DNA of 64,000 nucleotides from an uncultured Clostridium sp. (GCA_964612925.1 CAZTFU010000001.1:81958-145957); one strand, 5' to 3'. Positions 2,363 to 51,605 are shown, counted from the first letter of the stretch. Made by a program: numbers and translations. The notes: generated by a model not told the origin, from the letters alone.

Positions 2363-3511
2363 ATGGCAGGAATATATATACATATACCGTTTTGCGTGTC
2401 TAAGTGCCGCTATTGTGACTTTGTATCGTTTCCGTGTGACGAGAGTACAAAGAAACGGTACGTCTCCGCGCTTATAAAGGAAATGTCTTTAGCGGCACGG
2501 GAAACGCCGCACATGCGCTATGATTCCGTGTTTATAGGCGGCGGCACGCCGAGCACGCTGGAACTTGGCGAGGTAATGCGCATAATGTCCGCATTATATG
2601 ATAATTTCGACATTGCGCAGGATGCCGAAATAACCATAGAGGCGAACCCGGGCACGGTAGAAGAATGGAAAACCGAAGAATACCGTGAGTGTGGGATAAA
2701 CAGACTTTCCGTGGGTCTGCAAAGCGTTGCACCGCGTGTTTTAAGAACCATAGGACGAATACATACGCCCGATGATTTCATGAGGAGCATGGATATTGCC
2801 AAATCGGCGGGATTTACAAATATCAATGCGGATCTTATGTATGGCTTGCCCGAACAGACGGGTGATGATCTGCTTGCGGCAATAGCTGTTGCCGCGGGTA
2901 CGGGAGTTACACATATTTCGGCCTATTCGCTTATAGTTGAGGAGAATACTCCGCTCTACTTTGACGTGAACGGCGGCGGAACCCTTTTGCCCGATGAGGA
3001 CGAGACATTTGAAATGTACACAAAGGGCAGGGAACTTCTTGAGGGACTTGGCTTCCACCGTTATGAAATATCAAATTATGCAAAGGATGGGTACCGTTCC
3101 CGCCACAATTTGAATTATTGGAATAACGGTGAATACCTCGGCCTTGGTCTTAATTCGCATTCGGCAATGCGCATTGGCGGAAAATGGCTGCGTTGGTCAA
3201 ATAAAACCAAACTTGAAGAGTATATGACGGATGTTGAAGAAAGCATACGCCCGCTCGATGGCGACATGCAGACCATAGACAGGGCGGAGGAAATGTTCGA
3301 ATGCGTTATGCTTGGACTTAGAAAAACGGACGGCATATCGAATTCGGAGTTTGAAGCACGCTTTGGCCAAAGCCTTTTTGACACATTTGCAAAGGCAATA
3401 GCTCAGCTTGACAAAAACGGCATTCTTATCCGCACTGATGACGGCATAAAGCTTAACGAACGCGGATTGGATATTGAAAACCTTGCGCTTATGCCGTTTA
3501 TGGAGGATTAA
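2363..3511 (+). CDS. hemW: radical SAM heme chaperone HemW (oxygen-independent coproporphyrinogen III oxidase-like)
   Basis: IHIPFCVSKCRYCDF CxxxCxxC radical-SAM motif and the HemN-like C-terminal domain. It sits directly after lepA, as in many Firmicutes. Confidence 0.9.
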   Translation: MAGIYIHIPFCVSKCRYCDFVSFPCDESTKKRYVSALIKEMSLAARETPHMRYDSVFIGGGTPSTLELGEVMRIMSALYDNFDIAQDAEITIEANPGTVEEWKTEEYRECGINRLSVGLQSVAPRVLRTIGRIHTPDDFMRSMDIAKSAGFTNINADLMYGLPEQTGDDLLAAIAVAAGTGVTHISAYSLIVEENTPLYFDVNGGGTLLPDEDETFEMYTKGRELLEGLGFHRYEISNYAKDGYRSRHNLNYWNNGEYLGLGLNSHSAMRIGGKWLRWSNKTKLEEYMTDVEESIRPLDGDMQTIDRAEEMFECVMLGLRKTDGISNSEFEARFGQSLFDTFAKAIAQLDKNGILIRTDDGIKLNERGLDIENLALMPFMED

Positions 3512-3621
3512 GACACAATATATATGTGCTTATATGGCGGGCGGAGCGGCAATGCACCGTCCGTTTATATTTCCATCAAGCTAATGTTTCCGTTTTGTCA
3601 CAAAGGATACTTCCTTGTACC

Positions 3622-3650
3622 TTGACTATAGTGAAATGCGGTACTATACT
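3622..3650 (+). promoter_or_regulatory. sigma-70 promoter of the hrcA-grpE-dnaK-dnaJ operon
   Basis: TTGACT (3622-3627), 17-nt spacer, TATACT (3645-3650), immediately upstream of CIRCE. Confidence 0.6.
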
Positions 3651-3661
3651 TTAACCATAAG

Positions 3662-3688
3662 TTAGCACTCAACCTTAATGAGTGCTAA
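3662..3688 (+). promoter_or_regulatory. CIRCE operator (HrcA binding site)
   Basis: Perfect TTAGCACTC-N9-GAGTGCTAA inverted repeat between the promoter and hrcA. Confidence 0.95.
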
Positions 3689-3731
3689 CAACAGGTTGCG
3701 GCATACCGTGGCGAAAGGAGGCGGTAAACAA

Positions 3732-4772
3732 ATGGAGCTTGATGCAAGAAAAATGCGCATACTTCAGGCGATAATAGACGATTATATACTGACGGCATCG
3801 CCCGTAGGCTCGCGCACAATAGCAAAAAGCACGGATATCGGACTTTCAAGTGCTACGATCCGCAACGAAATGAGCGACCTTGAGGAAATGGGCTTCCTTG
3901 AACAGCCACACACTTCCGCCGGAAGAATACCGTCTGACAAGGCATACAGGCTTTATGTTGACAGTATTATGCGCCGAGCCAAATTGAGCAGGGATGAATT
4001 GAGCTTTATCAGCGAACACTATTCAAAGAGGCTCAATGAGGTGGATGACATAGTTAAGCAGACTGCATTCGTGTTGTCAAGCGTAACAAAGTACGCATCC
4101 ATGGTGCTTTCACCGCGGTTGCATGCCGCGCGGCTCAGATACATTCACATTGTGGGCCTTGGAGAGGGCAGGGCACTGTTACTTATAGTTACCGATTCCG
4201 GCCTCGCACGGGATTCCATGATTCGAGTGCCTTACGGGATGGAGCAAAGCGAGCTTGAAAGAATATCGCTCATGCTCAATGCAAAACTTGCCGATTGTCG
4301 GATGGACGAAATAATGGCAAATCGCATGAATGATATTGCGGGTGAGCTTGGCAGACACGCCGAATTCCTTGATTCGATAGTGAGCTCGATCAAGGAAAGC
4401 TTGGATCAAAGGGCAAAGCGGATTGAACTCAGCGGGACAACGAACCTTTTAAGTCTGCCCGAATACAGCGACATGGAACGCGCAAGGGATCTGTTGAGCG
4501 TTATGGAAAAGGGAGATGCCCTTTACGAAATGCTCAAAGGACGAGAAGATGTTGAATTTACGATTCGCATCGGCCATGAAAATGAGCTTAACAGCATGAA
4601 AGGGTGCAGTGTTGTAACGGCAACATACAAAATAGGCACGGAACCGATAGGTACGTTCGGGGTGATAGGACCCACACGCATGAATTATCCCAAGGTGCTT
4701 GCGGTGATGAGCCACATTGGAAAAACAATGAGCGAAACGCTTACAAATATGCTTGATGAGGAGCGAAATTAA
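3732..4772 (+). CDS. hrcA: heat-inducible transcription repressor HrcA
   Basis: MELDARKMRILQAIIDDYILTASPVGSRTI is the HrcA N-terminal winged helix. AGGAGG lies upstream of ATG 3732. The track start at 3678 lies inside CIRCE, so I rejected it. Confidence 0.93.
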   Translation: MELDARKMRILQAIIDDYILTASPVGSRTIAKSTDIGLSSATIRNEMSDLEEMGFLEQPHTSAGRIPSDKAYRLYVDSIMRRAKLSRDELSFISEHYSKRLNEVDDIVKQTAFVLSSVTKYASMVLSPRLHAARLRYIHIVGLGEGRALLLIVTDSGLARDSMIRVPYGMEQSELERISLMLNAKLADCRMDEIMANRMNDIAGELGRHAEFLDSIVSSIKESLDQRAKRIELSGTTNLLSLPEYSDMERARDLLSVMEKGDALYEMLKGREDVEFTIRIGHENELNSMKGCSVVTATYKIGTEPIGTFGVIGPTRMNYPKVLAVMSHIGKTMSETLTNMLDEERN

Positions 4773-5383: not shown

Positions 5384-7237
<1,854 letters not shown>

Positions 7238-7341: not shown

Positions 7342-8520
7342 GTGAAGGAAGATTATTACGAGCTGCTTGGCGTGAACAAGAACGCTACCGATGATGAGAT
7401 AAAAAGCGCATTCCGCAAGCTTGCTAAGCAATATCATCCGGACCTGCATAAAGGGGCGGACAAGGAAGAAGCGGAGGCAAAGTTTAAGCAGATAAACGAA
7501 GCATACGAAGTCCTGTCCGATAAAGATAAGCGCGCCAAATACGATCAGTTCGGCCATGCGGCGTTCGATCCTGCGGCGGGCGGTGGTTACGGCGGATACA
7601 GTTCCGCCGGCTTCGGTGATTTCAGCGATATATTTGACAGCGTATTCGGCGGAGGGTTTGGCGGATTTGGCGGCGGTTCACGCACACAGCGTAACGGTCC
7701 CGTGCGCGGTAACGACTTGAAATACAACATGACGCTTACATTTGAAGAAGCGGCATTTGGTACCAAAAAAGAAATCCTTATTCCGCGCGAGGAAAACTGT
7801 TCGGAATGTGGCGGCAGTGGCGCAAAGCCAGGTTCAACGCCAACAAAGTGTACGACTTGTGGCGGCACGGGTCAGGTTCGCGTACAGCAGAACACTATGT
7901 TCGGCTCGTTTTCAACCGTGCGCACATGTGAAGCCTGTAACGGCACGGGCAAAATTATAAAGGATCCCTGCACGCATTGCAAAGGACGCGGCAGGGTAAC
8001 CAAAAATAATCGCATAAACGTTACAATACCTGCGGGAATAAACAACGGCCAAACGCTTACCATGCGCGGGGAAGGTGAAGCCGGACTTCGCGGCGGAGCC
8101 AATGGTGACCTGTATATAGGCATAAGCATAAAGTCGCACAAGATATTTACACGAAATGGGTATGATCTATATCTTGATATAAACATCCCCATGACCACGG
8201 CCACGCTTGGCGGTGAAATTCAAGTGCCTACGCTTAAAGGCAGTGTTAAATATAACATACCGCAGGGCACACAGCCGGGTACAACATTCAGATTAAAGGA
8301 ACAGGGCGTGCAACGGCTTAATGCTGCGGGCAAGGGTGATCTGCTTGTGCGTGTAAACGTGCAAATTCCAAAGCGATTGAATGATGAACAGCGCGAGCTG
8401 GTTGAAAAGCTTGCCGAAGCCATGGGTGATAAAGCTTCAAATGCTCCAAAGCCCATGAAACGCACCATAATAGATAAGATGAAGGATAAGTTCAACCAGG
8501 AACAATCACAGCGCGAATAA
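7342..8520 (+). CDS. dnaJ: molecular chaperone DnaJ
   Basis: J-domain (DYYELLGV...HPD), G/F-rich region and four CxxCxGxG zinc-finger repeats. I prefer the GTG at 7342, 9 nt after AAGGAG, over the track TTG at 7333, which abuts the RBS. Confidence 0.93.
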   Translation: MKEDYYELLGVNKNATDDEIKSAFRKLAKQYHPDLHKGADKEEAEAKFKQINEAYEVLSDKDKRAKYDQFGHAAFDPAAGGGYGGYSSAGFGDFSDIFDSVFGGGFGGFGGGSRTQRNGPVRGNDLKYNMTLTFEEAAFGTKKEILIPREENCSECGGSGAKPGSTPTKCTTCGGTGQVRVQQNTMFGSFSTVRTCEACNGTGKIIKDPCTHCKGRGRVTKNNRINVTIPAGINNGQTLTMRGEGEAGLRGGANGDLYIGISIKSHKIFTRNGYDLYLDINIPMTTATLGGEIQVPTLKGSVKYNIPQGTQPGTTFRLKEQGVQRLNAAGKGDLLVRVNVQIPKRLNDEQRELVEKLAEAMGDKASNAPKPMKRTIIDKMKDKFNQEQSQRE

Positions 8521-8536
8521 AACGCAAATAGCAAAG

Positions 8537-26865: not shown

Positions 26866-26942
26866 GGGGTTATAGCTCAGCTGGTCAGAGCGCTACGTTG
26901 ACATCGTAGAGGTCGTTGGTTCGATCCCAACTAATCCCACCA
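26866..26942 (+). tRNA. tRNA-Val (anticodon GAC), CCA encoded
   Basis: Hand-folded cloverleaf. Acceptor GGGGTTA/TAATCCC (one G-U pair), D arm GCTC/GAGC, anticodon stem CTACG/CGTAG with loop TTGACAT, T arm GTTGG-TTCGATC-CCAAC, then ACCA. Confidence 0.9.
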
Positions 26943-27126
26943 AAATAATCCTGCGGTGTGCGTAAGCTCCTGTGTATAAACCCACAGAATAACTACGGGA
27001 GCACGATTGTGTGGCAGATGTCGAGCCGGCTTGACCGGATGGCAGTAACCCAGCAGAGCGCACCCACCTGCCGAGAGGCGGGTGTTATATAAGGAGCTAC
27101 GGCATCTTGGGATTATAAGCATTCTT
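26943..27126 (+). ncRNA. structured 184-nt spacer between the two tRNAs; candidate unclassified small RNA
   Basis: End-to-end closing helix ATAATCC(T)/(G)GGGATTAT, hairpins CTGTG..CACAG, CCGG-CTTGA-CCGG and CACCTGCC-GAGA-GGCGGGTG (GNRA loop). GCTCC (26966-26970) can pair with either of two GGAGC copies. No class assigned. Confidence 0.3.
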
Positions 27127-27200
27127 TGCGGAATTGTGTAATGGTAGCACCTACGACTCTGACTCGTATTGTCTAGGTTCGAATCCTAGTTCCGCAGCCA
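27127..27200 (+). tRNA. tRNA-Gln (anticodon CTG), CCA encoded
   Basis: Acceptor TGCGGAA/TTCCGCA with the U1-A72 pair typical of bacterial tRNA-Gln. Anticodon stem TACGA/TCGTA with loop CTCTGAC, T arm CTAGG-TTCGAAT-CCTAG, then GCCA. Confidence 0.88.
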
Positions 27201-39362: not shown

Positions 39363-39414
39363 ACGTATTTACTTTTTGCATAAACAGTGATAATATAAGT
39401 ATTGAATTAAATAG

Positions 39415-39600
39415 ACTTTCATGTTCTGCTCCTTTTTGGGGCAGCTAAGAGGGAAGCAGGTTAAAGGCCTGCGCGGTCCCGCCGCTGTATGCGTGGAGCA
39501 TTTGTTATTTGCCGATAAACGGCAAAGTCACTGAGGTAAAACTTGGGAAGGCATAGCAATGTGCGATGAAACGTGAGCCAGAAGACCTGCTTGAAAGTTC
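39415..39600 (+). promoter_or_regulatory. cobalamin (B12) riboswitch
   Basis: Conserved core AGGGAAGCAGGTTAAAGGCCTGCGCGGTCCCGCCGCTGTA (39449-39488) and B12 box GAGCCAGAAGACCTGC (39575-39590). A long peripheral extension lies between them. Confidence 0.88.
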
Positions 39601-39683
39601 GCCTTACCACGGGTCAATGGTTCAGGGGCGGGGTTATACAATGTTTTGTGTGCCCGAATAGTTTTTTAATGTGCAGAAAAACG

Positions 39684-39714
39684 GCTGCGGCGATATCGCC
39701 GCAGCTATTTTGTG
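39684..39714 (+). terminator. riboswitch expression-platform terminator
   Basis: Perfect palindrome GCTGCGGCGATATCGCCGCAGC followed by TATTTTGTG, 33 nt upstream of the first operon ATG. Confidence 0.8.
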
Positions 39715-39746: not shown

Positions 39747-40505
39747 ATGAGATTTCGCAGAGTGTTGACGGCACTTATGGCGATATTGATGCTGGTAGCT
39801 ACAATGGCGGGCTGTAGCGTATTCGGCTCTTCGACACAAAGAAATGCGCTGGACGTTGATTACATCGGTGGAGAGGACGAGGGCGAAAACAGGCTGAACG
39901 AGTTAAAGGGGCTTGCGGCGCAAAACGCTACTCCTGAGCCTGACGGACAATTAAAAACTCCTGCGCCATTAAATCTTGACGATGATGACGATACGGAATC
40001 CGTAGGCAAGATACAGGCAGAGGCTAAAGAAAATGCCGATGTTGCCGCAACGGAGCTGCCGGAACAGACACCTGCTCCGACTGAGAACGGCGAACCGCAG
40101 ACAAATACTTGCACCATAACCATACGGTGCGATACTGCTGTTGCCAAAGGAATGCACCTTGAAAAGAAGTGGCAGGGCATAGTACCTGCAAGCGGAGTAA
40201 TACTGGCGGTAACGACTATGACTTTTGAACCGGGAGATACGGTATTTGACGTGATTTGCGATGTGCGCGATAAATTCAAGTTGCATATGGAATACTCCGG
40301 GGCAAAGGGCAATGAATACATAGAGGGGATAAACAACCTTTATGAGTTTGACGGCGGTAGATGGAGCGGATGGATGTACTGCGTGAACGGATGGTATCCA
40401 AACTACGGTTGCGGGCAATACGCCGTTAAAAGCGGTGATGTTATCGAGTGGAATTACACTTGCGACCTTGGTAAAGACCTTGGACAAACGTGGATGGCGG
40501 GCTAA
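39747..40505 (+). CDS. lipoprotein with a C-terminal DUF4430 (transcobalamin-like C-terminal) domain
   Basis: Signal peptide plus lipobox (LVATMAGC), a long acidic/Pro-rich linker, then DUF4430-like CTITIRCD...GDTVFDV...YIEGINNLYEFDGGRWSGWMYCVNGWYPNYGCGQYAVKSGDVIEWNYT. The start is at 39747 (GAAAGGAAGG RBS); the track's extension to 39573 overlaps the riboswitch. Confidence 0.8.
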   Translation: MRFRRVLTALMAILMLVATMAGCSVFGSSTQRNALDVDYIGGEDEGENRLNELKGLAAQNATPEPDGQLKTPAPLNLDDDDDTESVGKIQAEAKENADVAATELPEQTPAPTENGEPQTNTCTITIRCDTAVAKGMHLEKKWQGIVPASGVILAVTTMTFEPGDTVFDVICDVRDKFKLHMEYSGAKGNEYIEGINNLYEFDGGRWSGWMYCVNGWYPNYGCGQYAVKSGDVIEWNYTCDLGKDLGQTWMAG

Positions 40506-40509
40506 TGGG

Positions 40510-41202
40510 ATGACCAACGAAGCGATTAAGGTAAACGACCTTACAAAAACATACCTTGCGGGCAAGGAAGAGGTAAAGGCGTTGCGCGGCGTGAGCCTAA
40601 GCGTTGAAAAGGGCGAATTCATATGTATTGCGGGCAAAAGCGGCAGCGGGAAATCAACATTACTCAACCTTGTTGCGGGACTTGAAAGAGCGACATGCGG
40701 CGAAATAAATGTGCTTGGGCAACGGGTTGATCAAATGAACGAAACCGAAAGGATACGCTTCAGGCGAGCAAATATAGGTTTCATATTTCAATCGTATAGG
40801 CTGTTGCCGCAGTATACGGCGGTTGAAAATGTAGCTTTGCCGCTTATGCTTCGCGGAATAGGAAAAAAGGAACGTGAACAGCGTGCGATGGTCGCGCTTG
40901 ATCATGTGGGTATTGCAAAGTGCGCAAATCAGCGGCCATCACAGATGAGCGGCGGTGAACAGCAACGCGCAGGCATAGCTCGTTCGATAATTACGGAACC
41001 CGCAATAATACTTGCCGACGAACCTACGGGCAACCTTGATTCCTCTACCGGGGAAATGATATTGAAGCTTTTTCAAAAGCTTTTTCGGCAGAACGGAACA
41101 ACACTGCTTATCGTTTCGCACGATAGCGACATGCCGCGCCATGTTGACAGGACTGTATACATGAGTGACGGTGCATTAATTAATAAGGAGATAATCATAT
41201 GA
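40510..41202 (+). CDS. ABC transporter ATP-binding protein, MacB/LolD/FtsE family
   Basis: Walker A GKSGSGKST, Q-loop FIFQSY, signature MSGGEQQR, Walker B ILADEPTGNLD and an H-loop VSHD. The track's N-terminal extension overlaps the previous gene. Confidence 0.9.
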   Translation: MTNEAIKVNDLTKTYLAGKEEVKALRGVSLSVEKGEFICIAGKSGSGKSTLLNLVAGLERATCGEINVLGQRVDQMNETERIRFRRANIGFIFQSYRLLPQYTAVENVALPLMLRGIGKKEREQRAMVALDHVGIAKCANQRPSQMSGGEQQRAGIARSIITEPAIILADEPTGNLDSSTGEMILKLFQKLFRQNGTTLLIVSHDSDMPRHVDRTVYMSDGALINKEIII

Positions 41203-42965
41203 AAAGGGGCAAAGGGCTGATACTTATTCTTGTGACGGCAATAATGCTGTCAGCGATACCTGTATGTGCCGCCGAAAAGGTGGAATTGAGCTTTGACTGT
41301 GACCCCGCATATGCCGCAATAGAAATTACGGGTGGAAAGGCATACTTGGGCAACTATACCGTGCCCGGGGACGGAAGCTATTCATTCACCGCAACGGCGG
41401 ACGGGTATGAGGATTACAGCGGCACGTTTGACGTTCTTGACGGTAGGGTGTCGTTTAACGGCGTTGAGTGCGGAGGAAATGTTATACACATTGTAATGAA
41501 CAAGAAAACATACCCCGTGCTTATAACAAAGAATCCGTCAAGCATGACGCTTATTGTAACAGATGCCTACGGTAATGAGGTGGATGATACATCATATTTA
41601 AGCTCGGGAACATATCTGTATTCGGCTTACGCCGAAGGATACGAAAGTGCCGCGGGAAAATTCAGCGTTGAAAATGCTCCTACGGTATTAAATATATCAC
41701 TTAAAGCAGTTACACAGTCCGCACCCACAACAAGCGGCATAGGGGCACTTGCACTTGCACCCGCAAATGTTGCGGGAGAATACTACAGCGCGCCCGTTGC
41801 AAGCCCAAACGAAGTAATAAGTTTGTACCTACCCGTGATAAACAATGGCGAATCACTTACAGACATAACTATAGAACCCGTAGTCTCAAGCAATGTTGAG
41901 GAATTTCCGTTTGTGGCGGAGGTTGCAAATTACGGATTAAAGCTGCCTAACCTTGAAAACGGTGCATGGGCGGTTGCACAGTATACATTCAAGGTGTCTC
42001 CTTATGCTACAAACGGTGTAAAGACCGTTCAGTTCCGTGCAATATACCGTGAAAACGGAGTGCTAACCGAAAGCACATTAAGCGCAAGCGTAACGATAAA
42101 GAACGGATATGAAGCACCGCAAACATCTGTCGAGACCGCGCCGAGACTTATTGTAAGCGGCTATGCATTGGATAAGGAAACCGTATACGCGGGAGAAGAT
42201 TTTGTGCTTACACTGTTTGTGAAGAACACATCCGCCTCAAATGAGGCAATGAACGTTACATCTTCACTAACGCTTGACCCTTCGGCTGTTATGCCGTCGC
42301 TTGGGCAGAGCGATATAAACTTTGCTTCATCGATAAAGCCCAATGATACGGCAGAACTTTCGTATAAGTTGACCGCAATGGCCGACATACAGGGCAATGC
42401 ACAGATAGCCATAAAGCTTGATTACGATAACGGGGAAGGGATAACGGGAAGTTCCTCCCAAACAATAACGTTACCGATAAAGCAACATATGCGAATAAGC
42501 GTTGATTCTCCCGAGATTTATGCGGACGGTGCAAAGGAGGGAGAGCTTATTGCTGTGTCTCTTCCCATTATAAATAAAGGAAAGACCAAGGCATACAATG
42601 TTGAAGTTAAGCTTGAAAGCGCAAAGCTTGCCATGCAGGAAGGGTATTTTGGCGGCGACATACTGCCGGGCGCAAAGCACAGTGCGGAATTTCAACTGCT
42701 TTGCCTTGAGGGAGGACTTGCCGAAGGGGTGCTTACGGTGAGTTTTGAGGATGCGGAAGGCAATACATATGAACAAAGCGTTGATTTGTCGGTAAATATT
42801 GATTATGTGGCAACGCAACCCGTACAAAGCAATATAGAGGAGGTACAGAAGGAAGCCGATACCGCGGCTTGGCCGATAATTATATGTGTAGTTGCGGGCA
42901 TTGCCGCTGTGGTCATAGCCTTGCTGTTTATTATAAAGAAGGGGAAACGAAATGCGGATAGGTGA
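41199..42965 (+). CDS. surface protein with PEGA-like and CARDB/COG1361-like beta-sandwich repeats and a C-terminal TM anchor; ABC accessory
   Basis: Signal peptide, two Y/G-rich PEGA-like modules, three ~110-aa repeats of the form 'L.LP..N.G...A.N' and a terminal hydrophobic helix plus KKGKRNADR. Translationally coupled on both sides. Confidence 0.6.
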   Translation: MKRGKGLILILVTAIMLSAIPVCAAEKVELSFDCDPAYAAIEITGGKAYLGNYTVPGDGSYSFTATADGYEDYSGTFDVLDGRVSFNGVECGGNVIHIVMNKKTYPVLITKNPSSMTLIVTDAYGNEVDDTSYLSSGTYLYSAYAEGYESAAGKFSVENAPTVLNISLKAVTQSAPTTSGIGALALAPANVAGEYYSAPVASPNEVISLYLPVINNGESLTDITIEPVVSSNVEEFPFVAEVANYGLKLPNLENGAWAVAQYTFKVSPYATNGVKTVQFRAIYRENGVLTESTLSASVTIKNGYEAPQTSVETAPRLIVSGYALDKETVYAGEDFVLTLFVKNTSASNEAMNVTSSLTLDPSAVMPSLGQSDINFASSIKPNDTAELSYKLTAMADIQGNAQIAIKLDYDNGEGITGSSSQTITLPIKQHMRISVDSPEIYADGAKEGELIAVSLPIINKGKTKAYNVEVKLESAKLAMQEGYFGGDILPGAKHSAEFQLLCLEGGLAEGVLTVSFEDAEGNTYEQSVDLSVNIDYVATQPVQSNIEEVQKEADTAAWPIIICVVAGIAAVVIALLFIIKKGKRNADR

Positions 42966-44229
42966 CCTTATACGCACCGGCGCAATAAATCTGTACAGAA
43001 GGCGTGTAAGGACGGCACTTACGGCATTGAGCATGGCTGTCGGCGTGATATGCATACTTATGCTTGTTTCGGTGGGCATAGGCTACGAGCAGGCATACAG
43101 GGAATCGATAGAAGCCATGGGCAGCCTTACAAAAATAGATGTTACGCAGAAGAATTCGTCCGCAACAAGGGTGGCGGTGCTGAATCAAAAGGCCGTTAAC
43201 GCCTTTGCGGGAATAGACGGTGTGGAGGCGGTAACACCGGTACTGCAAACAACGGCATACCTGAAAAGCGGGAAATACATAACAATGGTCAAACTGTACG
43301 GCATTGATATGAATACCGCACAAAGCTTTGGAATAACCCCGTTGCGCGGTGAGTTGCCTAAAAAGGGCACACGGTTGATGCCCCAGCTTCTTGCAACGGA
43401 TGACCTTGCAGCAAGCTTTGCGGATCCCGATACATGGAAAGAAGCCGTTGACTCAAGCGGTGAAGCGATAGTTGACCTTATGCGAAGTAATCTGAAGCTT
43501 ACCTTTGATTATGCAAGCCTTGTGGGGGATTATACCGAAGGTGATGACGGCAGGGCGGTTCCGCTTGGTCAAAGCCTGAAGGCGAACGTTACGGGCATTT
43601 GCAGTGCAATGAATTACACATATTCATGTTCGGCATTTATGGATATGGAAACGCTTAGCGAAATAAGCGATTCGGTGCAATCGAAAAACGGCAGTTCGAC
43701 TGAATACTCGCTTGTGTGGGTAAAGGTAAGCGAAGCGGATGATGTTATGGACATTGCCGCACTGATACGCGGCGCGGGGTTTGAAACATACAGCCTTACC
43801 GATATGCTTGATTCCGTTAAGGAACAGACCGAGCGTATACAGGGTCTGCTTTTTGCAATAGGTGCGGTTGCACTGCTTGTGGCGGGGCTTTGTATAGCAA
43901 ATACAATGATGATGGCCATAAACGAAAGGCGCACGGAGGTTGGCATCCTTAAGGTACTTGGCAGCGAATTAAAGGACATAGCGGCCATGTTCTTAACGGA
44001 AGCGGCAATGATAGGCATAATAGGAGCGTTTATGGGCATAGGCGTAAGCTTTGCGTTAAAGGCGGCATTAAATGGTTTGTTTGAAGAAATGGGCATAAGA
44101 TCCGTGTTGCCGATATGGCTTGCGGCATTTGCACTTGCATTTTCCGTGCTGGTTGCGGTACTCAGTGCGCTTGCCCCTGCGGTAAACGCAATGCGAATAT
44201 CCCCACTTTGCGCCATGCGAGATGAATAG
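42952..44229 (+). CDS. FtsX/MacB-type ABC transporter permease
   Basis: N-terminal TM (RTALTALSMAVGVICILMLVSVG), a ~250-aa extracytoplasmic domain, then three C-terminal TMs with the FtsX-family motif (ERRTEVGILKVLG). Confidence 0.88.
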   Translation: MRIGDLIRTGAINLYRRRVRTALTALSMAVGVICILMLVSVGIGYEQAYRESIEAMGSLTKIDVTQKNSSATRVAVLNQKAVNAFAGIDGVEAVTPVLQTTAYLKSGKYITMVKLYGIDMNTAQSFGITPLRGELPKKGTRLMPQLLATDDLAASFADPDTWKEAVDSSGEAIVDLMRSNLKLTFDYASLVGDYTEGDDGRAVPLGQSLKANVTGICSAMNYTYSCSAFMDMETLSEISDSVQSKNGSSTEYSLVWVKVSEADDVMDIAALIRGAGFETYSLTDMLDSVKEQTERIQGLLFAIGAVALLVAGLCIANTMMMAINERRTEVGILKVLGSELKDIAAMFLTEAAMIGIIGAFMGIGVSFALKAALNGLFEEMGIRSVLPIWLAAFALAFSVLVAVLSALAPAVNAMRISPLCAMRDE

Positions 44230-44246: not shown

Positions 44247-47120
44247 ATGAAAAACATAAAAAGGTTTATAGCGGCAATACTTACCGTGTTAATGCTTTTG
44301 GGCAGCTTCAGCGCATATGCGCTTGAAGGCGAAAGCTATACATCGGGAGAGCAAAAGCTGCTGCTTTCGGTACAGGAAGCGATTCAACAGGGTGCAGCTT
44401 ATATGCTCAACCCCGTTGGCAACTATTATCCTGAAAACGGTTTATCATTCGGCACACTTCAGGGAGACTGGGCGGCCTTTGCGCTTGGCAGAAGCGGTCT
44501 TGCAATACCTTATGACGTGTGGGAAACATATGCGGAAAATTCAAAGGACGATATTGTTGCCGCAATAAAAAAGGTACAATCCGAACACGGTGACATAACA
44601 TCACTTCCGCTTCTCCATTACAGAAAACGCACGGAAAACATGCGCGCGATAATCGGCTACACATCGGTAGGTTTGGATCCGACAAACGTTTCGGGTTATG
44701 ACATAACGCGTGCACTCGGCAACTATACGGATATAATTTGGCAGGGTATAAACGCGACCATATTTACGCTCATTTCGCTTGATACGCTTGGCTATGAAAT
44801 GCCCGAATTGACCGCGGAAGAACTTTCACAGGGTGTACACGGCACGGCGGTTCAGGCCACAAGAGAAATGCTTGTAACGCGCATAATGGCGCAGGAGCTT
44901 CCGGGCGGCGGCTGGGTGCTTGATACAGGCTTTGAGGTTGAGGATGATCCGACTTCGGGAGATATTACCATGTCTACCGATAAAGCCGACCCTGATATTA
45001 CCGCAATGGCAATACAGGCCCTTGCGCGGTACAGCGAGGATACCGTTTATGTAAACGGCACCGAAAAGAAGGTCGGTGACGCGATAGAGCGGGCATTGAA
45101 TGTATTAAGCTCAATGCAGAAAAGTGCTGGCGATTTCGAATCATGGGGCACAACAAACGTTGAAAGTACGGCGCAGGTGCTTATGGCACTTATTGCCATG
45201 GGTATAGATCCACTTGAGGACGAAAGATTTATAACCTCAAGCGGAAACACATTGCTTAACGGCATTTTGAAATACCATGTTTCAGGTTCGGGTTTTAAGC
45301 ATATTGCCGATGGTAGCGTAAATGCAATGGCCACGGATCAGGCAATGTATGCCCTTGTAGCATATGACAGATATCTCAAGGGTCAAAACTACATATATAA
45401 CATGAGCGACAATAAGACCGCCCATGCGATTTTACTTAATGAAAGCGAACACGGCACGCTGAGCTTATCAGCAGACAGCGCTTCGCAAGGCGAAAATGTA
45501 ACGGTTTATGCACAGGATACGGACGGATATTCTCTGAGTGATGTAAAGGTATATCTCTATCAATCCGAAATAAGCTTTGTAAACAATAAGATGGTCGTTT
45601 CGTGGGAACTTACGCCAACATATCAGCAGGCAGATATAAGTACGGATGGCCTAAGTGCTACGTTTACCATGCCCAATGTACCTGTTGTCGTAGTTGCCGA
45701 ATTCAGCGAAAACGGCCAATCGGCCGAAAAATACGAATTCATACAAACGAGCGTGAACGGCACCGTGCGAGTGTCTAAAGAAAGCGCGTCGGCAGGCGAA
45801 ACCGTGCTTATAAATCCGAAGCCCCTGTCAGGCTATGAATACGTTGATGGCAGCATAAGCGTAACGGATCAGAACGGAAATGCCATATCGCTTACGGCAA
45901 ACGCAAGCGGCGGTTATGAATTCACAATGCCTGCGGGCAACGTGACACTGTATGCTGAGTTTGAAGCGGTAAAGCTTATAGGTAGCGTGACCATATCGGT
46001 TGAAAGGTTCACAATAGGTAAGGGCTACGCCATTGAACCCATGCAGGTAGATCTATATCAGAACGACAGCGTTGCAAGTATAGTGACCCGTTTGCTTGAT
46101 GAGTATGACATGCCCTATACGCTTGGGCCGGGTGCAAGCGTTGAAAGCGGCTTCTACCTTGCAAGTATTACCGACGGAAGCGATCCGAATGAGCCGATAG
46201 AACCATTCGATTATATTGTCGAAGCAATAGAGGACGAATACGGCGAATTGAGTTACACACGCGACGGGGAGAGCCTTGGTGAATTCGACTATGCACAGCA
46301 GTCGGGCTGGATGTATTCGGTAAACGGTGCATTCCCCAATTACGGTGCATCCGACTACAATACAACATCCAAGGTAAATCCGCTTAAGGACGGAGACGTT
46401 ATCCGTTGGCAGTTCACATTATGGGGACTCGGCAAGGATATAGGCGGCGGATTTGACGGCGATGAGGCTGCGGGTACATTTGAGGGTTCATATATAACCA
46501 TAGCGGAAAGAACCGCCGCAACAAGCACCATAGCCGATGTAAACAGCAACTATTCATCTTGGGTGGCTACAAATCGTTCTGTCTATGATGCGGCAGTAAA
46601 CGCCATGTGCGACCTTACATTGAGCGAAACGGAGCTTAATGCCGCCATAAAGCCCCTGCGCACCATGCTTGCGGCGAATAAGGATGAGTTCAGGATAATT
46701 CTTCCCTACAGCGCGGCCGCAAACGGACATACTATATCAACTCCCGCAACGGCAAAGGCGGGGGACGACGTGACGGTTACCGTAACGCCAAAGAACGGGT
46801 ATGAGCTTTATCTCGGCAGCCTTAAAGCGAACGGCGTAAAGCTTACTAAGCGTGGCACATCTTATACATTTGTAATGCCGAGTGAGGATGTTGCGATAAC
46901 GGCAAGCTTCTGCACAGAAGGCACGGGACCCAAGGTAGTGCAGGGCGATGTGAACGGCGACGGCACACTTAATACGATAGATGTGGCGCTCCTCTGCCGC
47001 TATCTGACGGGGCAGGTCGAGCTTTCAAGCGATGCTATATCCCTTGCCGATATGAATGAGGACGGCAAGGTGACCATTGCTGACGCAATACTGCTGTGCA
47101 AACGTATTGCGGCAAACTGA
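44247..47120 (+). CDS. secreted dockerin-bearing protein with an alpha/alpha-toroid (prenyltransferase/transcobalamin-N-like) domain, beta-sandwich repeats and a DUF4430 domain
   Basis: Signal peptide; QxxxGGW-type toroid repeats (AQELPGGGWVLD, MQKSAGDFESWG); DUF4430 (SGWMYSVNGAFPNYGASDY...LKDGDVIRWQFT, about 45970-46450). The C-terminal type-I dockerin has two Ca-binding loops, DVNGDGTLNTID and DMNEDGKVTIAD (46944-47117). Confidence 0.8.
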   Translation: MKNIKRFIAAILTVLMLLGSFSAYALEGESYTSGEQKLLLSVQEAIQQGAAYMLNPVGNYYPENGLSFGTLQGDWAAFALGRSGLAIPYDVWETYAENSKDDIVAAIKKVQSEHGDITSLPLLHYRKRTENMRAIIGYTSVGLDPTNVSGYDITRALGNYTDIIWQGINATIFTLISLDTLGYEMPELTAEELSQGVHGTAVQATREMLVTRIMAQELPGGGWVLDTGFEVEDDPTSGDITMSTDKADPDITAMAIQALARYSEDTVYVNGTEKKVGDAIERALNVLSSMQKSAGDFESWGTTNVESTAQVLMALIAMGIDPLEDERFITSSGNTLLNGILKYHVSGSGFKHIADGSVNAMATDQAMYALVAYDRYLKGQNYIYNMSDNKTAHAILLNESEHGTLSLSADSASQGENVTVYAQDTDGYSLSDVKVYLYQSEISFVNNKMVVSWELTPTYQQADISTDGLSATFTMPNVPVVVVAEFSENGQSAEKYEFIQTSVNGTVRVSKESASAGETVLINPKPLSGYEYVDGSISVTDQNGNAISLTANASGGYEFTMPAGNVTLYAEFEAVKLIGSVTISVERFTIGKGYAIEPMQVDLYQNDSVASIVTRLLDEYDMPYTLGPGASVESGFYLASITDGSDPNEPIEPFDYIVEAIEDEYGELSYTRDGESLGEFDYAQQSGWMYSVNGAFPNYGASDYNTTSKVNPLKDGDVIRWQFTLWGLGKDIGGGFDGDEAAGTFEGSYITIAERTAATSTIADVNSNYSSWVATNRSVYDAAVNAMCDLTLSETELNAAIKPLRTMLAANKDEFRIILPYSAAANGHTISTPATAKAGDDVTVTVTPKNGYELYLGSLKANGVKLTKRGTSYTFVMPSEDVAITASFCTEGTGPKVVQGDVNGDGTLNTIDVALLCRYLTGQVELSSDAISLADMNEDGKVTIADAILLCKRIAAN

Positions 47121-47175: not shown

Positions 47176-50100
47176 ATGAAAAAAAGAGTATTGGCATTTA
47201 TACTCGCACTTGTTATGGCGCTTTCATTGCCGATAATGGCAATAGCGGAAGGCGATACGCAGGTGGAAGTCAGTGCCGAACAGCAGGACGTAAGCGTTCC
47301 TGCGGCGCCGGAAGAAAGCGGCGAAGAAGGACAAAACGAATCGGCGGAAACTACCGAAGTTGCCGTTGATGCGGAAACATTTATGGGTTCTGCGGACGTT
47401 GCGGCGGCAAACCAGTTCAGCAAGCTGCGCGTACAGCTCGGCTTCGGCGTTTATGCTGAAGAAGACTATCTTCTGAAGAATGAAGGCGAAAGCTATCAGA
47501 CGGACAACATATTTGATCCGACCGTTTACAATTACGACTTTGGCGCAATAAGCAAGGAAGTTGTAAACAGGGCGTCCAATCAGGTTCGCTTTGCTTATTC
47601 GGCCGCGGAAGGTGCATCCGTAAAAATTCATTATACTGATGAAAACGGCAATGCCACCAGCAAGGATGGAAGTGCGCTTAACGATTCGTCCAACACCGAC
47701 TGGGTAAAGACTTACGATGGTGAAAACATAATTAAGCTTGTGCTTACTCCGCCCGCTGACAGCGGTCTTAGCGCAACCACCTACACCATAAAGCTTTATG
47801 TCGGTGAAAAGCCCGCAGAACCCGCAAAGGTAAAGGTATACATATCCTTCAGCGATAACGGAAGTTATAATTTCCCTTATGGCAAAACCGAAGTTACTGC
47901 GGTTGAAGGTACTGCCGAAAAATACGGCCTTAGCAATGCCGATGCCGACCATACCGTAGGCGGACAGAATCACGGCATATCCGCAGGTCAGGTAAGCGTG
48001 CTTGATGCGGTTGTCAGCGCACATGAGGCACTGTATGGAAGCGCATTTACCAAGGCGACCATGGACTCATATCTTGATGCAGGCGGCGGCAGCTATATAA
48101 GCAAGATGTTCGGCGTAAGCGGCAGCATCAGCTTTGCCGTAAACAATCGCCTGCCCATGGGTCCGAAGAGCGATGGGTATGCCATAAACGAATATGCCGT
48201 TTCCGAGGGTGATGACATTGTGTTCTTCATCTACGGCGGTTCGTGGTGGGACGATTATTTCTGCTATTTTGACAAAAAGCAGGTAACCGTTAAGGAAGAT
48301 GAAGAAATAAAGCTGAACCTTGAAGGCTTCTATGCCATGGAGCAGCTTTGGGGCAACCCCGGTACGGATACCCCTGCACTCGATTCCCTTGAGAAGATCA
48401 AGAATGCCATTATTGTATTGCTTAAGTATGACGATGACCTCGGTTCATGGAATATGGACGGTTATGTATACGATGAATATGATGATCCTGTCGTAACCGA
48501 TTCCAACGGCGATGCGAAGTTCAAGTTTGACAAAGCCGGAACATACTATGTCAGCGCAATGGGCACCTCGTCCTCCGGAGCTTATATATCTCTTCCGTGG
48601 TGCGAAATAACCGTTACGGAAAACACAAATAAGCCCAAGGGCAACGACCTTAACGGTATGCTCATTTATACCGGCTACAGCAAGAATAATGACAGCGTAA
48701 TGGTGCGCAACGAAAGCGACAGCTACACAACGTCAAACGTATTCGCATGGAATAAGTACGAATATAGTTTTGAAGTTGCAGATACCGTAACTCAGCTCCG
48801 CTTTAATCTTAACCTTGCGGACGGCGCAAAGGCAACGCTACACTATACCACCACTACGGGTTCCGAGGCAACAAAGGATGCCACAAATTCCGCATCCAAT
48901 GCCGCGTGGATAAACTGCATACAGCCTGGCAAAAACGTTGTTAAGGTTGTTGTAACTCCTCCCGACGGCAGCGGTCTTTCCGAAAAGACATACACCATAA
49001 ATGTCGATTGTAAGCCCACGCTCACCGCACTTTCCGTTGCAAACGGCAGTACGGAGCTGATACTTGATTCGACGTTTAAGAGCACTACCCTCGAGTATAG
49101 TGCGGACGTTGATGCGGCGGCAGAGGTTCTTACCGTTTCCGCAACGGCCAAGAACACAAGCTGCACCGTTACTTATAACGGTAAGGCCGACAACAATGTT
49201 GACGTAAAGGATACCGATAAGATAGTTATCCGCGTTGAAAAAGACGGCCTGTACACCGAGTATGCGGTAAAACTGAATAAAAAGACCGCTTATTCGGCAA
49301 AAATTGAAACCTACCCCGCAAATGCCGTTGTACGCATGGAAGATTCCAAGGGTACGGCACTTGATACTGATTCGGAAGGCGCATATGCAGGTCTGTTGCC
49401 GGGTGCCGAATACAAGTTTGTTGTATCCTGCAAGGGCTATGTGACAAAGACCGGTACTCTCAGTGATCCGGCTCAGCTCACCAACGGTGTGCTTAGCGTG
49501 ATTCTTTCCGCGGCGCCTGCGTCCAATCTGACCGATTATGACGCGGAATGGCCCACATTCAGGAACAGCGAAAACAACAACGCCGTGACCTCGACCGTAA
49601 CTCCCGACAGCGCCGAAAATGCGGAGCTTAAATGGGCCAAGAAGTACGGTTCGGGCTGGAGTGCTTCTCCATCTATACCCATTATAGTAAATGAGCATGT
49701 TTACTTCATTATGGACAAAAAGATATACTGTGCAAGCAAAGAAACAGGTGAAATCGAAGCCGAAGGTACACTCAACGGTGGTGCAGGTTACAGCACCAAT
49801 TCCATCGTATATGCGGAAGGCATGATATTTGCACAAGTGGGTAGCGGCAAGATACAGGCGTTCCGTGCCGATACGCTTGAAAGCCTGTGGGTATCCGAAT
49901 CAATAGGCGGCGGACAGACCATATCTCCCATAACCTATTACAACGGATATATCTATACGGGTATGTGGGGCGGCGAAACCAAGGCTTCGGACTTTGTTTG
50001 CTTCTCAATAACCGATGAAGATCCCAACAGCACGAATGAAACCAAGTACGCCACATGGAAGGTTTCTCACCTTGGCGGTTATTACTGGGTGGGCGCGTAT

Positions 50101-51021
50101 GTCAATGACGTTTGCGCCGTATTCGGTACGGATGACGGTACCTCAAAGGCTGACAGCCCCACGGCTGATCTCTATTCCGTAAATCCCACTACCGGCAAGA
50201 TAATAGACAATATCTCCGAGATTAAAGGTGACGTGCGTTCCTGCGTAACATATGATTCGGGCAGGGTATACTTTACCACGAAGGGCGGTTATCTGTACTC
50301 CGTCGGCCTTAACTCAAACGGCACGTTTGATCATGATTCCGTCAAGTGCATCCAGATAGACAGCATGTCCACCAGCACGCCCGTTGTGCATAACGGCAGG
50401 CTGTATGTCGGTTGCTCAGGCAAGGGCTATGACTGGGACGGCGATTCCGGCTCAGGCATTGTCGTGGTTGATGTATCCGGCGGCAAGCTCGATATCATTT
50501 ACAAGGCTTCAACTCCCGGTTATCCCCAGGCGGGTCCGCTTGTAAGCACCGCGTTTGAAAAGGCGACCGGCAAGGTATATGTATACACCACCTACAACAG
50601 TAACCCCGGCGGTATCTACATTATAGAAGACAGTGCGGGACAGACCGAGCCGAGTGAAAACAACGGTGACTTGTTCGTACCGGGAGACGGCCAGAAGCAG
50701 TATTGCATAAGCACCATTTGCGCTGACAGCGAGGGTACTCTGTACTATAAGAACGACTCCGGCCACCTGTTTGCCATAAAGAGCAATGCCGTGCTGCCCA
50801 AGCTCCCCGAGGAAGAGGAGACTGATGACACGGATAATGATTCGTCTTGGCCCGGCGGAAGCGTGTTTGGCCCCGGCAGCAACTCAACCACGCCCACTCC
50901 CGTACCGCCCACGGTGCTTATGCCCGTTACAGGCGGCGAAGAAAGCATTGTTCCCGCAATAGTGCTTATTGCGTGCGGTGCGGCCCTGATGCTTGTGCTC
51001 TGGCGCAAGAGAAGGATATAA
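47176..51021 (+). CDS. 1281-aa sortase-signal surface protein with cadherin-like beta-sandwich domains, a divergent DUF4430-like module, a PEGA-like domain and a PQQ-like beta-propeller
   Basis: Signal peptide. Cadherin-like sandwich modules lie at about 47410-47820 and 48640-49280. A DUF4430-like module lies at about 47820-48360 (VLDAV...SISFAVNN...YAVSEGDDIVFFIY). The WPTFRNSENNNAVT propeller start and repeated blades span about 49534-50784. The C-terminal sorting signal is LMPVTG plus a hydrophobic helix plus RKRRI. Confidence 0.8.
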   Translation: MKKRVLAFILALVMALSLPIMAIAEGDTQVEVSAEQQDVSVPAAPEESGEEGQNESAETTEVAVDAETFMGSADVAAANQFSKLRVQLGFGVYAEEDYLLKNEGESYQTDNIFDPTVYNYDFGAISKEVVNRASNQVRFAYSAAEGASVKIHYTDENGNATSKDGSALNDSSNTDWVKTYDGENIIKLVLTPPADSGLSATTYTIKLYVGEKPAEPAKVKVYISFSDNGSYNFPYGKTEVTAVEGTAEKYGLSNADADHTVGGQNHGISAGQVSVLDAVVSAHEALYGSAFTKATMDSYLDAGGGSYISKMFGVSGSISFAVNNRLPMGPKSDGYAINEYAVSEGDDIVFFIYGGSWWDDYFCYFDKKQVTVKEDEEIKLNLEGFYAMEQLWGNPGTDTPALDSLEKIKNAIIVLLKYDDDLGSWNMDGYVYDEYDDPVVTDSNGDAKFKFDKAGTYYVSAMGTSSSGAYISLPWCEITVTENTNKPKGNDLNGMLIYTGYSKNNDSVMVRNESDSYTTSNVFAWNKYEYSFEVADTVTQLRFNLNLADGAKATLHYTTTTGSEATKDATNSASNAAWINCIQPGKNVVKVVVTPPDGSGLSEKTYTINVDCKPTLTALSVANGSTELILDSTFKSTTLEYSADVDAAAEVLTVSATAKNTSCTVTYNGKADNNVDVKDTDKIVIRVEKDGLYTEYAVKLNKKTAYSAKIETYPANAVVRMEDSKGTALDTDSEGAYAGLLPGAEYKFVVSCKGYVTKTGTLSDPAQLTNGVLSVILSAAPASNLTDYDAEWPTFRNSENNNAVTSTVTPDSAENAELKWAKKYGSGWSASPSIPIIVNEHVYFIMDKKIYCASKETGEIEAEGTLNGGAGYSTNSIVYAEGMIFAQVGSGKIQAFRADTLESLWVSESIGGGQTISPITYYNGYIYTGMWGGETKASDFVCFSITDEDPNSTNETKYATWKVSHLGGYYWVGAYVNDVCAVFGTDDGTSKADSPTADLYSVNPTTGKIIDNISEIKGDVRSCVTYDSGRVYFTTKGGYLYSVGLNSNGTFDHDSVKCIQIDSMSTSTPVVHNGRLYVGCSGKGYDWDGDSGSGIVVVDVSGGKLDIIYKASTPGYPQAGPLVSTAFEKATGKVYVYTTYNSNPGGIYIIEDSAGQTEPSENNGDLFVPGDGQKQYCISTICADSEGTLYYKNDSGHLFAIKSNAVLPKLPEEEETDDTDNDSSWPGGSVFGPGSNSTTPTPVPPTVLMPVTGGEESIVPAIVLIACGAALMLVLWRKRRI

Positions 51022-51050: not shown

Positions 51051-51605
51051 ATGGGGTTTCGGTATAAAAACATGAGCACTGATGTGAGCATTGATGAATA
51101 CATCGATGCCTGCGTTGATGTGCCGCGTATAATAAAAGGGTGCCAAGGCTGTACGAATTACGGAAGGCTTTGGTCCTGCCCGCCGTTTGCCTTTGACCCC
51201 GTTATGATTTGGCGCAGTTATTCACGGCTTAGGCTATATGCAAGAAAGGTCATGCTGCCCTGTGAGCTTACCCAAAGAACATACGGAGAAAGCGAACTTT
51301 CAGACGAATACTTCAGAATATGGAAGGTTGAACGCAGGAATTTTTTCAACGAGCTTTTGGCTCTGGAACGAGCCGAACGCGACAGCCGCGCCTTGGTAGC
51401 GGGCTGTTGCGACATATGCAATGAATGTGCGCGTTTAAGCGGAACGGCGTGCACGGCACCCGAAAAGCTGAGATATTCGATAGAAGCACTCGGCGGGGAC
51501 GTTGAACGCACGCTGAACCTTTATTTCGGTGAAAAAACACTTTGGGCAAAGGAAGGACACATGAGCGAATATATGTTGCTCGTTGGTGCGCTTATGCTGA
51601 AATGA
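51051..51605 (+). CDS. DUF2284-family predicted metal-binding (Cys-rich) protein
   Basis: CQGCTNYGRLWSCPP and CCDICNEC...C motifs are characteristic of DUF2284. GGAGG sits 10 nt upstream. Last gene before the terminator. Confidence 0.7.
   Translation: MGFRYKNMSTDVSIDEYIDACVDVPRIIKGCQGCTNYGRLWSCPPFAFDPVMIWRSYSRLRLYARKVMLPCELTQRTYGESELSDEYFRIWKVERRNFFNELLALERAERDSRALVAGCCDICNECARLSGTACTAPEKLRYSIEALGGDVERTLNLYFGEKTLWAKEGHMSEYMLLVGALMLK

Follow-up and report, generated by a model that had tools for sequence, protein, structure and literature searches.

A predicted wall-anchored propeller protein in a Cobalamin-riboswitch operon of an uncultured Clostridium sp., and its possible part in extracellular corrinoid scavenging

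The gene described here lies at positions 47176..51021 on the + strand of a 64,000-nucleotide (nt) stretch of DNA from an uncultured Clostridium sp. (GCA_964612925.1, CAZTFU010000001.1:81958-145957). This whole stretch is called the window; coordinates are positions in it, and residue numbers refer to the 1281 amino acid (aa) protein specified by the gene, which is called the target. It is the sixth of seven genes behind a Cobalamin riboswitch, and its product is a secreted protein that carries a beta-propeller and ends in a sortase-type tail. The target is probably a surface protein made under vitamin B12 scarcity and working in extracellular corrinoid scavenging, while a role in corrinoid acquisition in general is the broader statement and a distinctly likely one.

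The operon and its sixth gene

The open reading frame (ORF) is present exactly as an earlier reading of the DNA from sequence only had described it, with the stop codon included in the span, and a strong ribosome-binding site, the Shine-Dalgarno sequence AAGGAAGG, stands 8 nt 5' of its ATG. It is no chance ORF, since 329 homologues were found at E<=1e-5, most of them full length, and those listed are 64–88% identical. The closest relatives of the gene are from Christensenellaceae and other Clostridia, i.e., Firmicutes. A phmmer search of PDB sequences with the whole protein gave no match at E<=1, and NCBIfam models gave nothing near any cut-off on either the whole protein or the propeller. The seven + strand genes behind the riboswitch are tightly packed, neighbouring genes lying -14 to +55 nt apart, and no strong terminator was seen on the + strand inside the unit. 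Locus counts given below and in the rest of the text refer to the best 79 of at least 569 confirmed propeller stretches, found in a scan of species-representative genomes (one genome per species).

39404..39608, +: Cobalamin riboswitch aptamer, RF00174 (101.6 bits, gathering score 31.5; model covered in full, 1-189)
39683..39706, +: terminator-like hairpin of 10 pairs, 8 of them G-C, then ATTTTGTGTA, between the aptamer and the first gene
39747..40505, +: 252-aa lipoprotein with lipobox MAGC and a C-terminal DUF4430 (Pfam, E 7e-19)
40510..41202, +: LolD/MacB-type ATP-binding cassette (ABC) ATPase (ABC_tran, 1.5e-36; best NCBIfam match LolD-like, below the equivalog cut-off)
41199..42965, +: 588-aa secreted protein with a C-terminal membrane anchor and a CARDB-like domain (homologues in only 4 of the 79 loci)
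42952..44229, +: FtsX/MacB-type ABC permease (FtsX, 4e-20; MacB_PCD, 8e-11)
44247..47120, +: 957-aa secreted protein with a weak alpha/alpha-toroid (squalene-cyclase-like) N-terminus, DUF4430 (2.4e-9), two Flg_new_2 and a type I dockerin
47176..51021, +: target gene, sixth of seven (1281 aa)
51051..51605, +: Cys-rich, apparently cytoplasmic DUF2284 protein, the final gene of the operon (Pfam, 2.9e-18)

The hairpin at 39683-39706 and its T-run are likely to act as the expression platform of the riboswitch. With RF00174 upstream on the same strand, and neither a terminator nor a divergent gene intervening, the target falls within a Cobalamin-riboswitch regulon, its B12-responsive expression being predicted. 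The sequence-only reading had placed the gene in a B12-riboswitch operon of a Gram-positive organism, and this is supported. The same operon is present in a clade of 64% identity, where the DUF2284 gene again forms its end (L080), and homologues of that gene were found at just two of the 79 propeller loci.

Two neighbours of the target deserve separate description. The LolD/MacB ATPase, the FtsX/MacB_PCD permease and the 588-aa CARDB-like protein occur as a trio only in four Christensenellaceae-like loci of the 79. In this B12-riboswitch operon they stand in place of an energy-coupling factor (ECF) or BtuFCD importer, this type of ABC system being known for export or mechanotransmission. No TonB-dependent transporter was found among the seven operon genes scanned with Pfam. 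In the 957-aa protein, an alpha/alpha toroid followed by DUF4430 repeats the two-domain order of transcobalamin and intrinsic factor; the toroid assignment is weak (E 5e-4, below cut-off). This protein could be a transcobalamin-like bacterial carrier, tethered via a cohesin encoded outside the window, and Pfam detected no cohesin for its dockerin in either the target or the 588-aa protein.

The target itself is built from the following parts.

47176..47247, +: Sec signal peptide, residues 1-24, with AIA before and EG after the cleavage site (MKKRVLAFILALVMALSLPIMAIA, then EG), read by eye from the sequence
47416..47811, +: Cadherin-like beta-sandwich 1, residues 81-212 (Pfam, 18.4 bits, below cut-off)
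47812..48291, +: divergent DUF4430-like module, residues 213-372 (hhalign, AlphaFold2)
48292..48630, +: immunoglobulin (Ig)-like domain, residues 373-485 (AlphaFold2 model; weak Foldseek matches to PKD and Ig V-set)
48640..49275, +: Cadherin-like beta-sandwiches 2 and 3, residues 489-612 and 613-700 (Pfam PF12733)
49276..49533, +: CarboxypepD_reg-like beta-sandwich spacer, residues 701-786, adjoining the propeller on its 5' side
49534..50790, +: PQQ/BamB-like beta-propeller of about eight blades, residues 787-1205 (419 aa), the best-conserved part of the target
50791..50910, +: wall-spanning linker, acidic and then Pro/Thr-rich, residues 1206-1245 (read from the sequence)
50920..50934, +: sorting motif MPVTG, residues 1249-1253
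50935..51018, +: GEES, then about 20 hydrophobic residues and the RKRRI end of the sorting signal (sequence and homologues)

An acidic linker separates the signal peptide from the first sandwich. The PF12733 match of the whole protein reaches 45.9 bits (E 8e-12), with its best stretch at 616-693, and residues 489-615 score 27.7 bits; copies 2 and 3 exceed the gathering score of the family and copy 1 does not, its name being based on 40% identity to sandwich 2 (BLASTP, 5e-24). The spacer matches CarboxypepD_reg over residues 715-760 (Pfam, 1.2e-5, below cut-off), and a segment of this type precedes the propeller in 81 of 150 propeller-family representatives. The propeller begins at EWPTFRNSENNNAVT (residue 791) and its final strand ends at residue 1203, in agreement with the span of 49534-50784 first proposed for it. 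The cadherin-like sandwiches, the PQQ-like propeller and the sortase-type tail of the original reading are borne out.

That tail runs ...MPVTG-GEES-IVPAIVLIACGAALMLVLW-RKRRI, and a pentapeptide followed by a hydrophobic segment and basic residues is the layout of a sortase substrate, here with an LPXTG variant. In all 155 close homologues, the arrangement [Q/E/L]-MPVTG-GE[E/D]S, hydrophobic segment and basic tail is kept. The sorting pentapeptide is therefore MPVTG, with Met at its first position, and the preceding residue may be Q, E or L. The sequence-only reading was right to see a sorting signal, and right about the hydrophobic segment and RKRRI behind it, but its motif LMPVTG took in a variable residue. 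No other tail of the MPVTG type occurs in the window, and a search of the window's ORFs for a TLxTC-type motif found no sortase-like ORF. The target has no lipobox. In more distant propeller proteins the C-terminus is an NPxTG or SPxTG tail, a plain membrane anchor or an SLH domain, and surface tethering is the common denominator of the family.

Residues 213-372 probably form a remote relative of DUF4430. Pfam gave neither a DUF4430 (PF14478) match nor any other at E<=10, whether residues 206-385 or 213-372 were submitted, so that the sequence-only reading of a DUF4430-like module stands as profile-profile likeness and not as a Pfam match. With hhalign, the module and DUF4430 matched at 88% and 82% reciprocal probability (E 3e-6 and 1e-5), against 0.8% at most for three unrelated sandwich domain families used as controls. 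The alignment covers a long helix and three strands, up to the strand with the pattern G-D-x-[IV]-x-[FW] (read by eye). An AlphaFold2 model of the module together with the Ig-like domain has a predicted local distance difference test score (pLDDT) of 94.1 and shows the module order hairpin, helix, strands. The same module recurs in 18 of the 150 representatives.

The propeller family and its association with vitamin B12

The AlphaFold2 model of the propeller, built with an alignment of 36 sequences, has a pLDDT of 92.8 and a predicted template-modelling (TM) score of 0.92. It contains 31 strands which, when grouped by hand from the secondary-structure string, make about eight four-stranded blades closed by an N-terminal strand. 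Pfam recognises PQQ_2 (PF13360) at residues 819-916, with 30.5 bits in the whole protein and 35.4 in the isolated domain against a cut-off of 27.6, and the description of a PQQ-like propeller with repeated blades was correct. A Foldseek search of PDB placed BamB first (E 7e-17, TM 0.76), followed by YxaL, the pyrroloquinoline quinone (PQQ)- and lanthanide-dependent alcohol dehydrogenases, and tetrathionate hydrolase. BamB and YxaL superpose over about 410–430 columns, with E values of 7e-17 to 1e-14 and target-normalised TM scores of 0.70–0.78. The 419 aa of the propeller fit these non-catalytic proteins (343–392 residues) and not the enzymes (450–720 residues).

The sequence-only reading had raised BtuG, the B12-capture propeller of Bacteroides, as a possible convergent or distant relative, with BtuG and BamB-like propellers as comparators for residues 787-1205. 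The BamB-like match was found and the BtuG match was not. The 50 best of the 1856 matches that Foldseek returned from PDB include no BtuG chain, in a library with a cut-off of April 2026 that BtuG structures such as 8BMZ predate. A profile of the propeller family run against PDB sequences likewise retrieved BamB and quinoproteins; at E<=10, BtuG was still absent. The blades of BtuG number seven (PMC13616437). On the grounds of structure search, profile search and blade number, the propeller is of the PQQ/BamB-type fold, and homology to BtuG, even at a distance, is unsupported. The sequence-only reading had itself remarked that BtuG is not PQQ-like. Fifteen polar or aromatic residues that are at least 90% conserved lie in loops assigned to one face of the propeller; this assignment was made by hand from strand order, not from coordinates. 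Conserved residues, in propeller numbering, include Q128, E148, Y184, D200, D233, R235, K250, T280, T282, Q332, N355, Y390 and N407-S409.

The propeller defines a large family. In a search of 1.84 billion cluster representatives, 1709 matched at E<=1e-3 and 863 at E<=1e-30, the latter being 50%-identity clusters. Listed matches align over the whole 419 residues at 42–53% identity, and belong to proteins of 389–3496 residues with very varied architectures. Within the nearest clade the propeller is 80% identical, as against 64% for the whole protein. Nearly all of the 79 loci are labelled Clostridia or other Firmicutes, among them Christensenellaceae, Blautia, Ruminococcus, Oscillospiraceae, Anaerovorax, Peptococcia, Clostridium cadaveris and Gallibacter. 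A few loci (L049, L051, L059 and L025) carry the labels Thermoguttaceae, Streptococcus pasteurianus, Bacteroides stercoris and Coriobacteriaceae, and since the family is otherwise Clostridia-wide these may be mis-binned contigs or recent transfers.

Across the Clostridia, the family is very likely tied to B12 biology through riboswitches, DUF4430 proteins and ECF transporters. Of the 79 loci, 41 have a Cobalamin riboswitch on the same strand upstream of the propeller gene, or 39 of the 62 that have at least 2 kb of upstream sequence, and in 22 loci it ends less than 700 nt 5' of the propeller reading frame. The internal control covered about as much sequence and showed same-strand riboswitches downstream in only six loci and opposite-strand ones in four. 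These calls were made by nhmmer, and Rfam at the gathering threshold agreed with 10 of 10 positives and 7 of 7 negatives; in a first Rfam sample, six of seven propeller loci had a riboswitch.

The partners are as regular. DUF4430 is encoded within 10 kb at 66 of the 79 loci, including 40 of the 41 with an upstream riboswitch and 21 of 22 without one. It is fused to the propeller polypeptide in 48 of the 150 representatives, and by Pfam in 14 of a set of 33, in which all other fused domains are spacers, repeats or anchors (Cadherin-like, Big_2, SLH, fn3, LRR). Homologues of the N-terminal 400 aa of the 957-aa neighbour, the alpha-toroid, occur at 47 of the 79 loci, ECF S components at 28 and T components at 22–24. 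Compact operons of riboswitch, propeller, DUF4430 and ECF genes recur in annotated contigs. One of them (P0278, L053) consists of a riboswitch, a propeller-SLH protein without its own DUF4430, a DUF4430 protein, an EcfT-like protein and an EcfAA'-S fusion. NCBIfam could not assign the S components near relatives of the target to CbrT. Vertebrate transcobalamins have DUF4430 as the type of their C-terminal domain (PMC4350170); the link is taken from that source because a profile search of PDB with the bacterial DUF4430 alignment gave no significant match.

Several individual loci show other arrangements. In a Blautia sp. (L016, 224-12556, +), genes for the alpha-toroid, DUF4430 and propeller proteins cluster with those for a MoxR AAA ATPase, a DUF58 protein and a TgpA-like transglutaminase, and no riboswitch was found within 8.6 kb upstream, which suggests that the trio can be wired differently or has a role broader than B12. 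A Peptococcia metagenome-assembled genome (MAG) has four Cobalamin aptamers in the 2.6 kb upstream of its propeller cluster (L024, 1202-3802, +), the first preceding a PduO-type cobalamin adenosyltransferase and the other three (3107-3802) lying back to back. This locus also holds DUF4430, propeller, SLH and alpha-toroid sequences, in gene calls that look fragmented. In a Roseburia MAG (L044), the Cobalamin riboswitch directly before the propeller gene has a TwoAYGGAY RNA (5502-5666, +; 94 bits) about 160 nt upstream of it. Two adjacent B12-controlled units are seen at L032, where an adenosylcobalamin-type RF01482 (4689-4827, -) and an RF00174 on the propeller strand (8309-8525, +) fall within 4 kb.

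Proposed role and competing explanations

The following sequence of events may be envisaged. When intracellular cobalamin falls, termination would be relieved and the riboswitch would let transcription run through into the operon. The target would be exported and then linked to the wall by sortase, its spacers holding two heads, the DUF4430-like module and the propeller, beyond the wall. These heads might capture corrinoid either in free form or on a loaded carrier, for instance the dockerin-bearing neighbour with its alpha-toroid and DUF4430, and the corrinoid would then be passed inward to the DUF4430 lipoprotein and a membrane transporter. Within this scheme, direct binding of corrinoid by the propeller itself is a tentative idea. 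Were it to bind, this would be convergence, since the fold is of the BamB/PQQ type and the protein is not a BtuG homologue. The stronger form of the proposal, that the eight-bladed propeller is a high-affinity corrinoid-binding domain and the convergent Gram-positive counterpart of BtuG, in a family widespread among Firmicutes, is likewise speculative. The term 'functional analogue' of BtuG, as first applied, should be read as a hypothesis.

A number of observations weigh against this scheme. The nearest structures of the propeller, as modelled, are scaffolds (BamB, YxaL) and enzymes, not vitamin binders, and conserved polar residues are only modestly enriched on the 'top' loops (11% vs 6%). 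The DUF4430-like call for residues 213-372 comes from remote profile similarity. Foldseek with the two-domain model of module and Ig-like domain, a poor query, returned only weak Ig and PKD matches (best E 2.4e-4, query-normalised TM 0.26 or less) and no transcobalamin-type match; as the matches were Ig-like only, structural confirmation of the module as DUF4430 failed. There is no recognisable importer in the target's operon, and its ABC system is of the LolD/MacB type, a class known from export and mechanotransmission, so that the hand-over step is unexplained there. Finally, where enough upstream sequence is available, about 40% of loci show no riboswitch within 10 kb, one example being a Blautia clade whose neighbouring genes include MoxR, DUF58 and transglutaminase, and the family may therefore not be exclusively dedicated to B12.

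An alternative that fits the data equally well makes the propeller a BamB-like docking platform, or receptor, for loaded DUF4430 or alpha-toroid carriers, and not a vitamin binder. The system would still be one of B12 scavenging, with the BtuG analogy failing at the level of the propeller. This, too, is a tentative idea. BamB and YxaL being the top structural matches speaks for it, as does the fact that known B12-binding relatives belong to the DUF4430 and alpha/alpha toroid types, not to the propeller (PMC4350170). Separate DUF4430 proteins are co-encoded with the propeller at 61 of 63 loci, and the dockerin of the 957-aa neighbour implies the need for a cell-bound partner. Against it, no cohesin and no other known receptor for dockerins was seen in the target. 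In addition, the propeller as a whole is very highly conserved across classes, which suits a small, invariant ligand no less well than it suits co-evolving protein partners. That the propeller is often encoded by the first gene after the riboswitch, without a DUF4430 of its own, is neutral between docking and binding.

Three other explanations were considered and rejected. True but distant homology to BtuG, with the same ligand site, would account for both being surface-displayed propellers encoded in B12-riboswitch loci (PMC6143338, PMC13616437), but it is largely refuted and barely credible given about eight predicted blades instead of seven (PMC13616437), the lack of BtuG in the top 50 structure matches from a library that postdates 8BMZ, a family profile that finds BamB and quinoproteins and no BtuG at E<=10, and the Pfam assignment to PQQ_2. 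A quinoprotein-type enzyme, such as a PQQ-dependent dehydrogenase acting on an extracellular substrate, is hardly more plausible. The presence of PQQ alcohol dehydrogenases and tetrathionate hydrolase among the Foldseek and profile matches points that way, but 419 aa is too small beside the roughly 550–700 aa of a full-size catalytic propeller with its PQQ and metal ligands, the enzyme-normalised TM scores are only 0.42–0.57, and the PDB profile matches span just one or two blade motifs. Moreover, the quinoprotein group matched in NCBIfam is an 'empty' (non-PQQ) one, scoring 24 bits where the cut-off is 650, and no catalytic partner domain occurs in the 33 representatives. The target might also be a general adhesin that is co-transcribed incidentally, its B12 context being irrelevant. 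Cadherin-like, Ig-like and sortase features are typical of adhesins, and some relatives have no nearby riboswitch, but the B12 association follows the propeller family across many genera and architectures, and the 22 loci with a riboswitch directly before the propeller gene, together with the near-universal linkage to DUF4430, make this very improbable.

Scavenging of corrinoids by a surface-tethered propeller protein and its DUF4430 and alpha-toroid partners, if it takes place, would have wider significance. Extracellular capture of cobamides by Gram-positive gut bacteria is still an open question, in a setting where Firmicutes and Bacteroidota compete for one corrinoid pool, and a 2026 review of the Bacteroides relay describes Gram-positive extracellular cobamide capture as 'entirely uncharacterized' (PMC13616437). 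The conserved surface propeller, DUF4430 proteins with the domain type found at the C-terminus of the human B12 carriers, and alpha-toroid proteins, under riboswitch control and often in an ECF operon, are a widespread candidate apparatus. If the proposal holds, the propeller and the transcobalamin-like proteins would be an undescribed extracellular B12-capture relay, feeding ECF-type transporters and, in the target's clade, possibly a MacB-type system. Binding of corrinoid by the propeller would be a second independent use of this fold for B12 capture; docking of transcobalamin-like carriers would instead mean a bacterial carrier-receptor system. Either outcome is testable by ordinary biochemistry and genetics, and offers handles on vitamin competition in the gut, including that of Christensenellaceae.

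Comparison with known systems

The target shares several traits with BtuG of Bacteroides thetaiotaomicron (BtuG2, PDB 8BMZ): a surface propeller, a riboswitch locus, a gut bacterium as host, an acidic ectodomain and, plausibly in the case of the target, a role in extracellular B12 acquisition. BtuG is likewise known as a surface-displayed propeller from B12-riboswitch loci (PMC6143338, PMC13616437). The differences are considerable. Against seven blades the target's propeller has about eight, and no sequence or top-ranking structural similarity was detected. BtuG binds corrinoid at picomolar to femtomolar strength on one face of its propeller; for the target, the fifteen conserved polar or aromatic residues in loops assigned to one face give an indirect hint at most. 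BtuG is a lipoprotein capping the TonB-dependent transporter BtuB, whereas the target has a sortase-type tail and comes from a Gram-positive organism, with no outer membrane and no BtuB. The target at most works like BtuG and is not a member of its family; structurally, its propeller is in the PQQ_2/BamB superfamily. With BamB, YxaL and PQQ_2 it has in common the fold, eight blades, a blade motif A-x-D-x-x-T-G-x-x-x-W and a length of about 350–420 aa, but identity to BamB and YxaL is only 12–16%. BamB acts in the periplasm, as a scaffold in the machine that assembles the outer membrane, while the target's family consists of extracellular modules of Firmicutes with a B12-regulon context and a conserved signature of their own.

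Transcobalamin, intrinsic factor and haptocorrin combine an alpha-barrel with a beta-domain of the DUF4430 type. The operon's lipoprotein and its 957-aa protein carry bona fide DUF4430, whereas the target has no alpha-barrel and its remote DUF4430-like module escapes the Pfam model. With BtuH, BtuJ (DUF4465) and BtuK of the Bacteroidota, which have predicted homologues in a few Firmicutes, the shared element is the concept of multi-protein extracellular cobamide relays; Pfam and NCBIfam detected no DUF4465 or other domain of the BtuH/J/K type in the target or its operon. The resemblance to ECF-CbrT, the B12 importer of Lactobacillus delbrueckii, lies in the relatives of the propeller gene, many of which stand in one riboswitch-controlled operon with genes for a T component, an S component and a duplicated ATPase of the ECF type. 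In the target's operon the MacB/LolD-type ABC system takes the place of ECF. Literature searches returned no study of the propeller family and none showing a bacterial DUF4430 protein to bind B12. The target is probably a surface B12-scavenging accessory protein assembled from different parts and for a different cell envelope, in a family that appears to be uncharacterised.

Elsewhere in the window (26866-27197, +), a 6S RNA at 26945-27117 lies directly between two tRNA genes (26866-26939 and 27127-27197).

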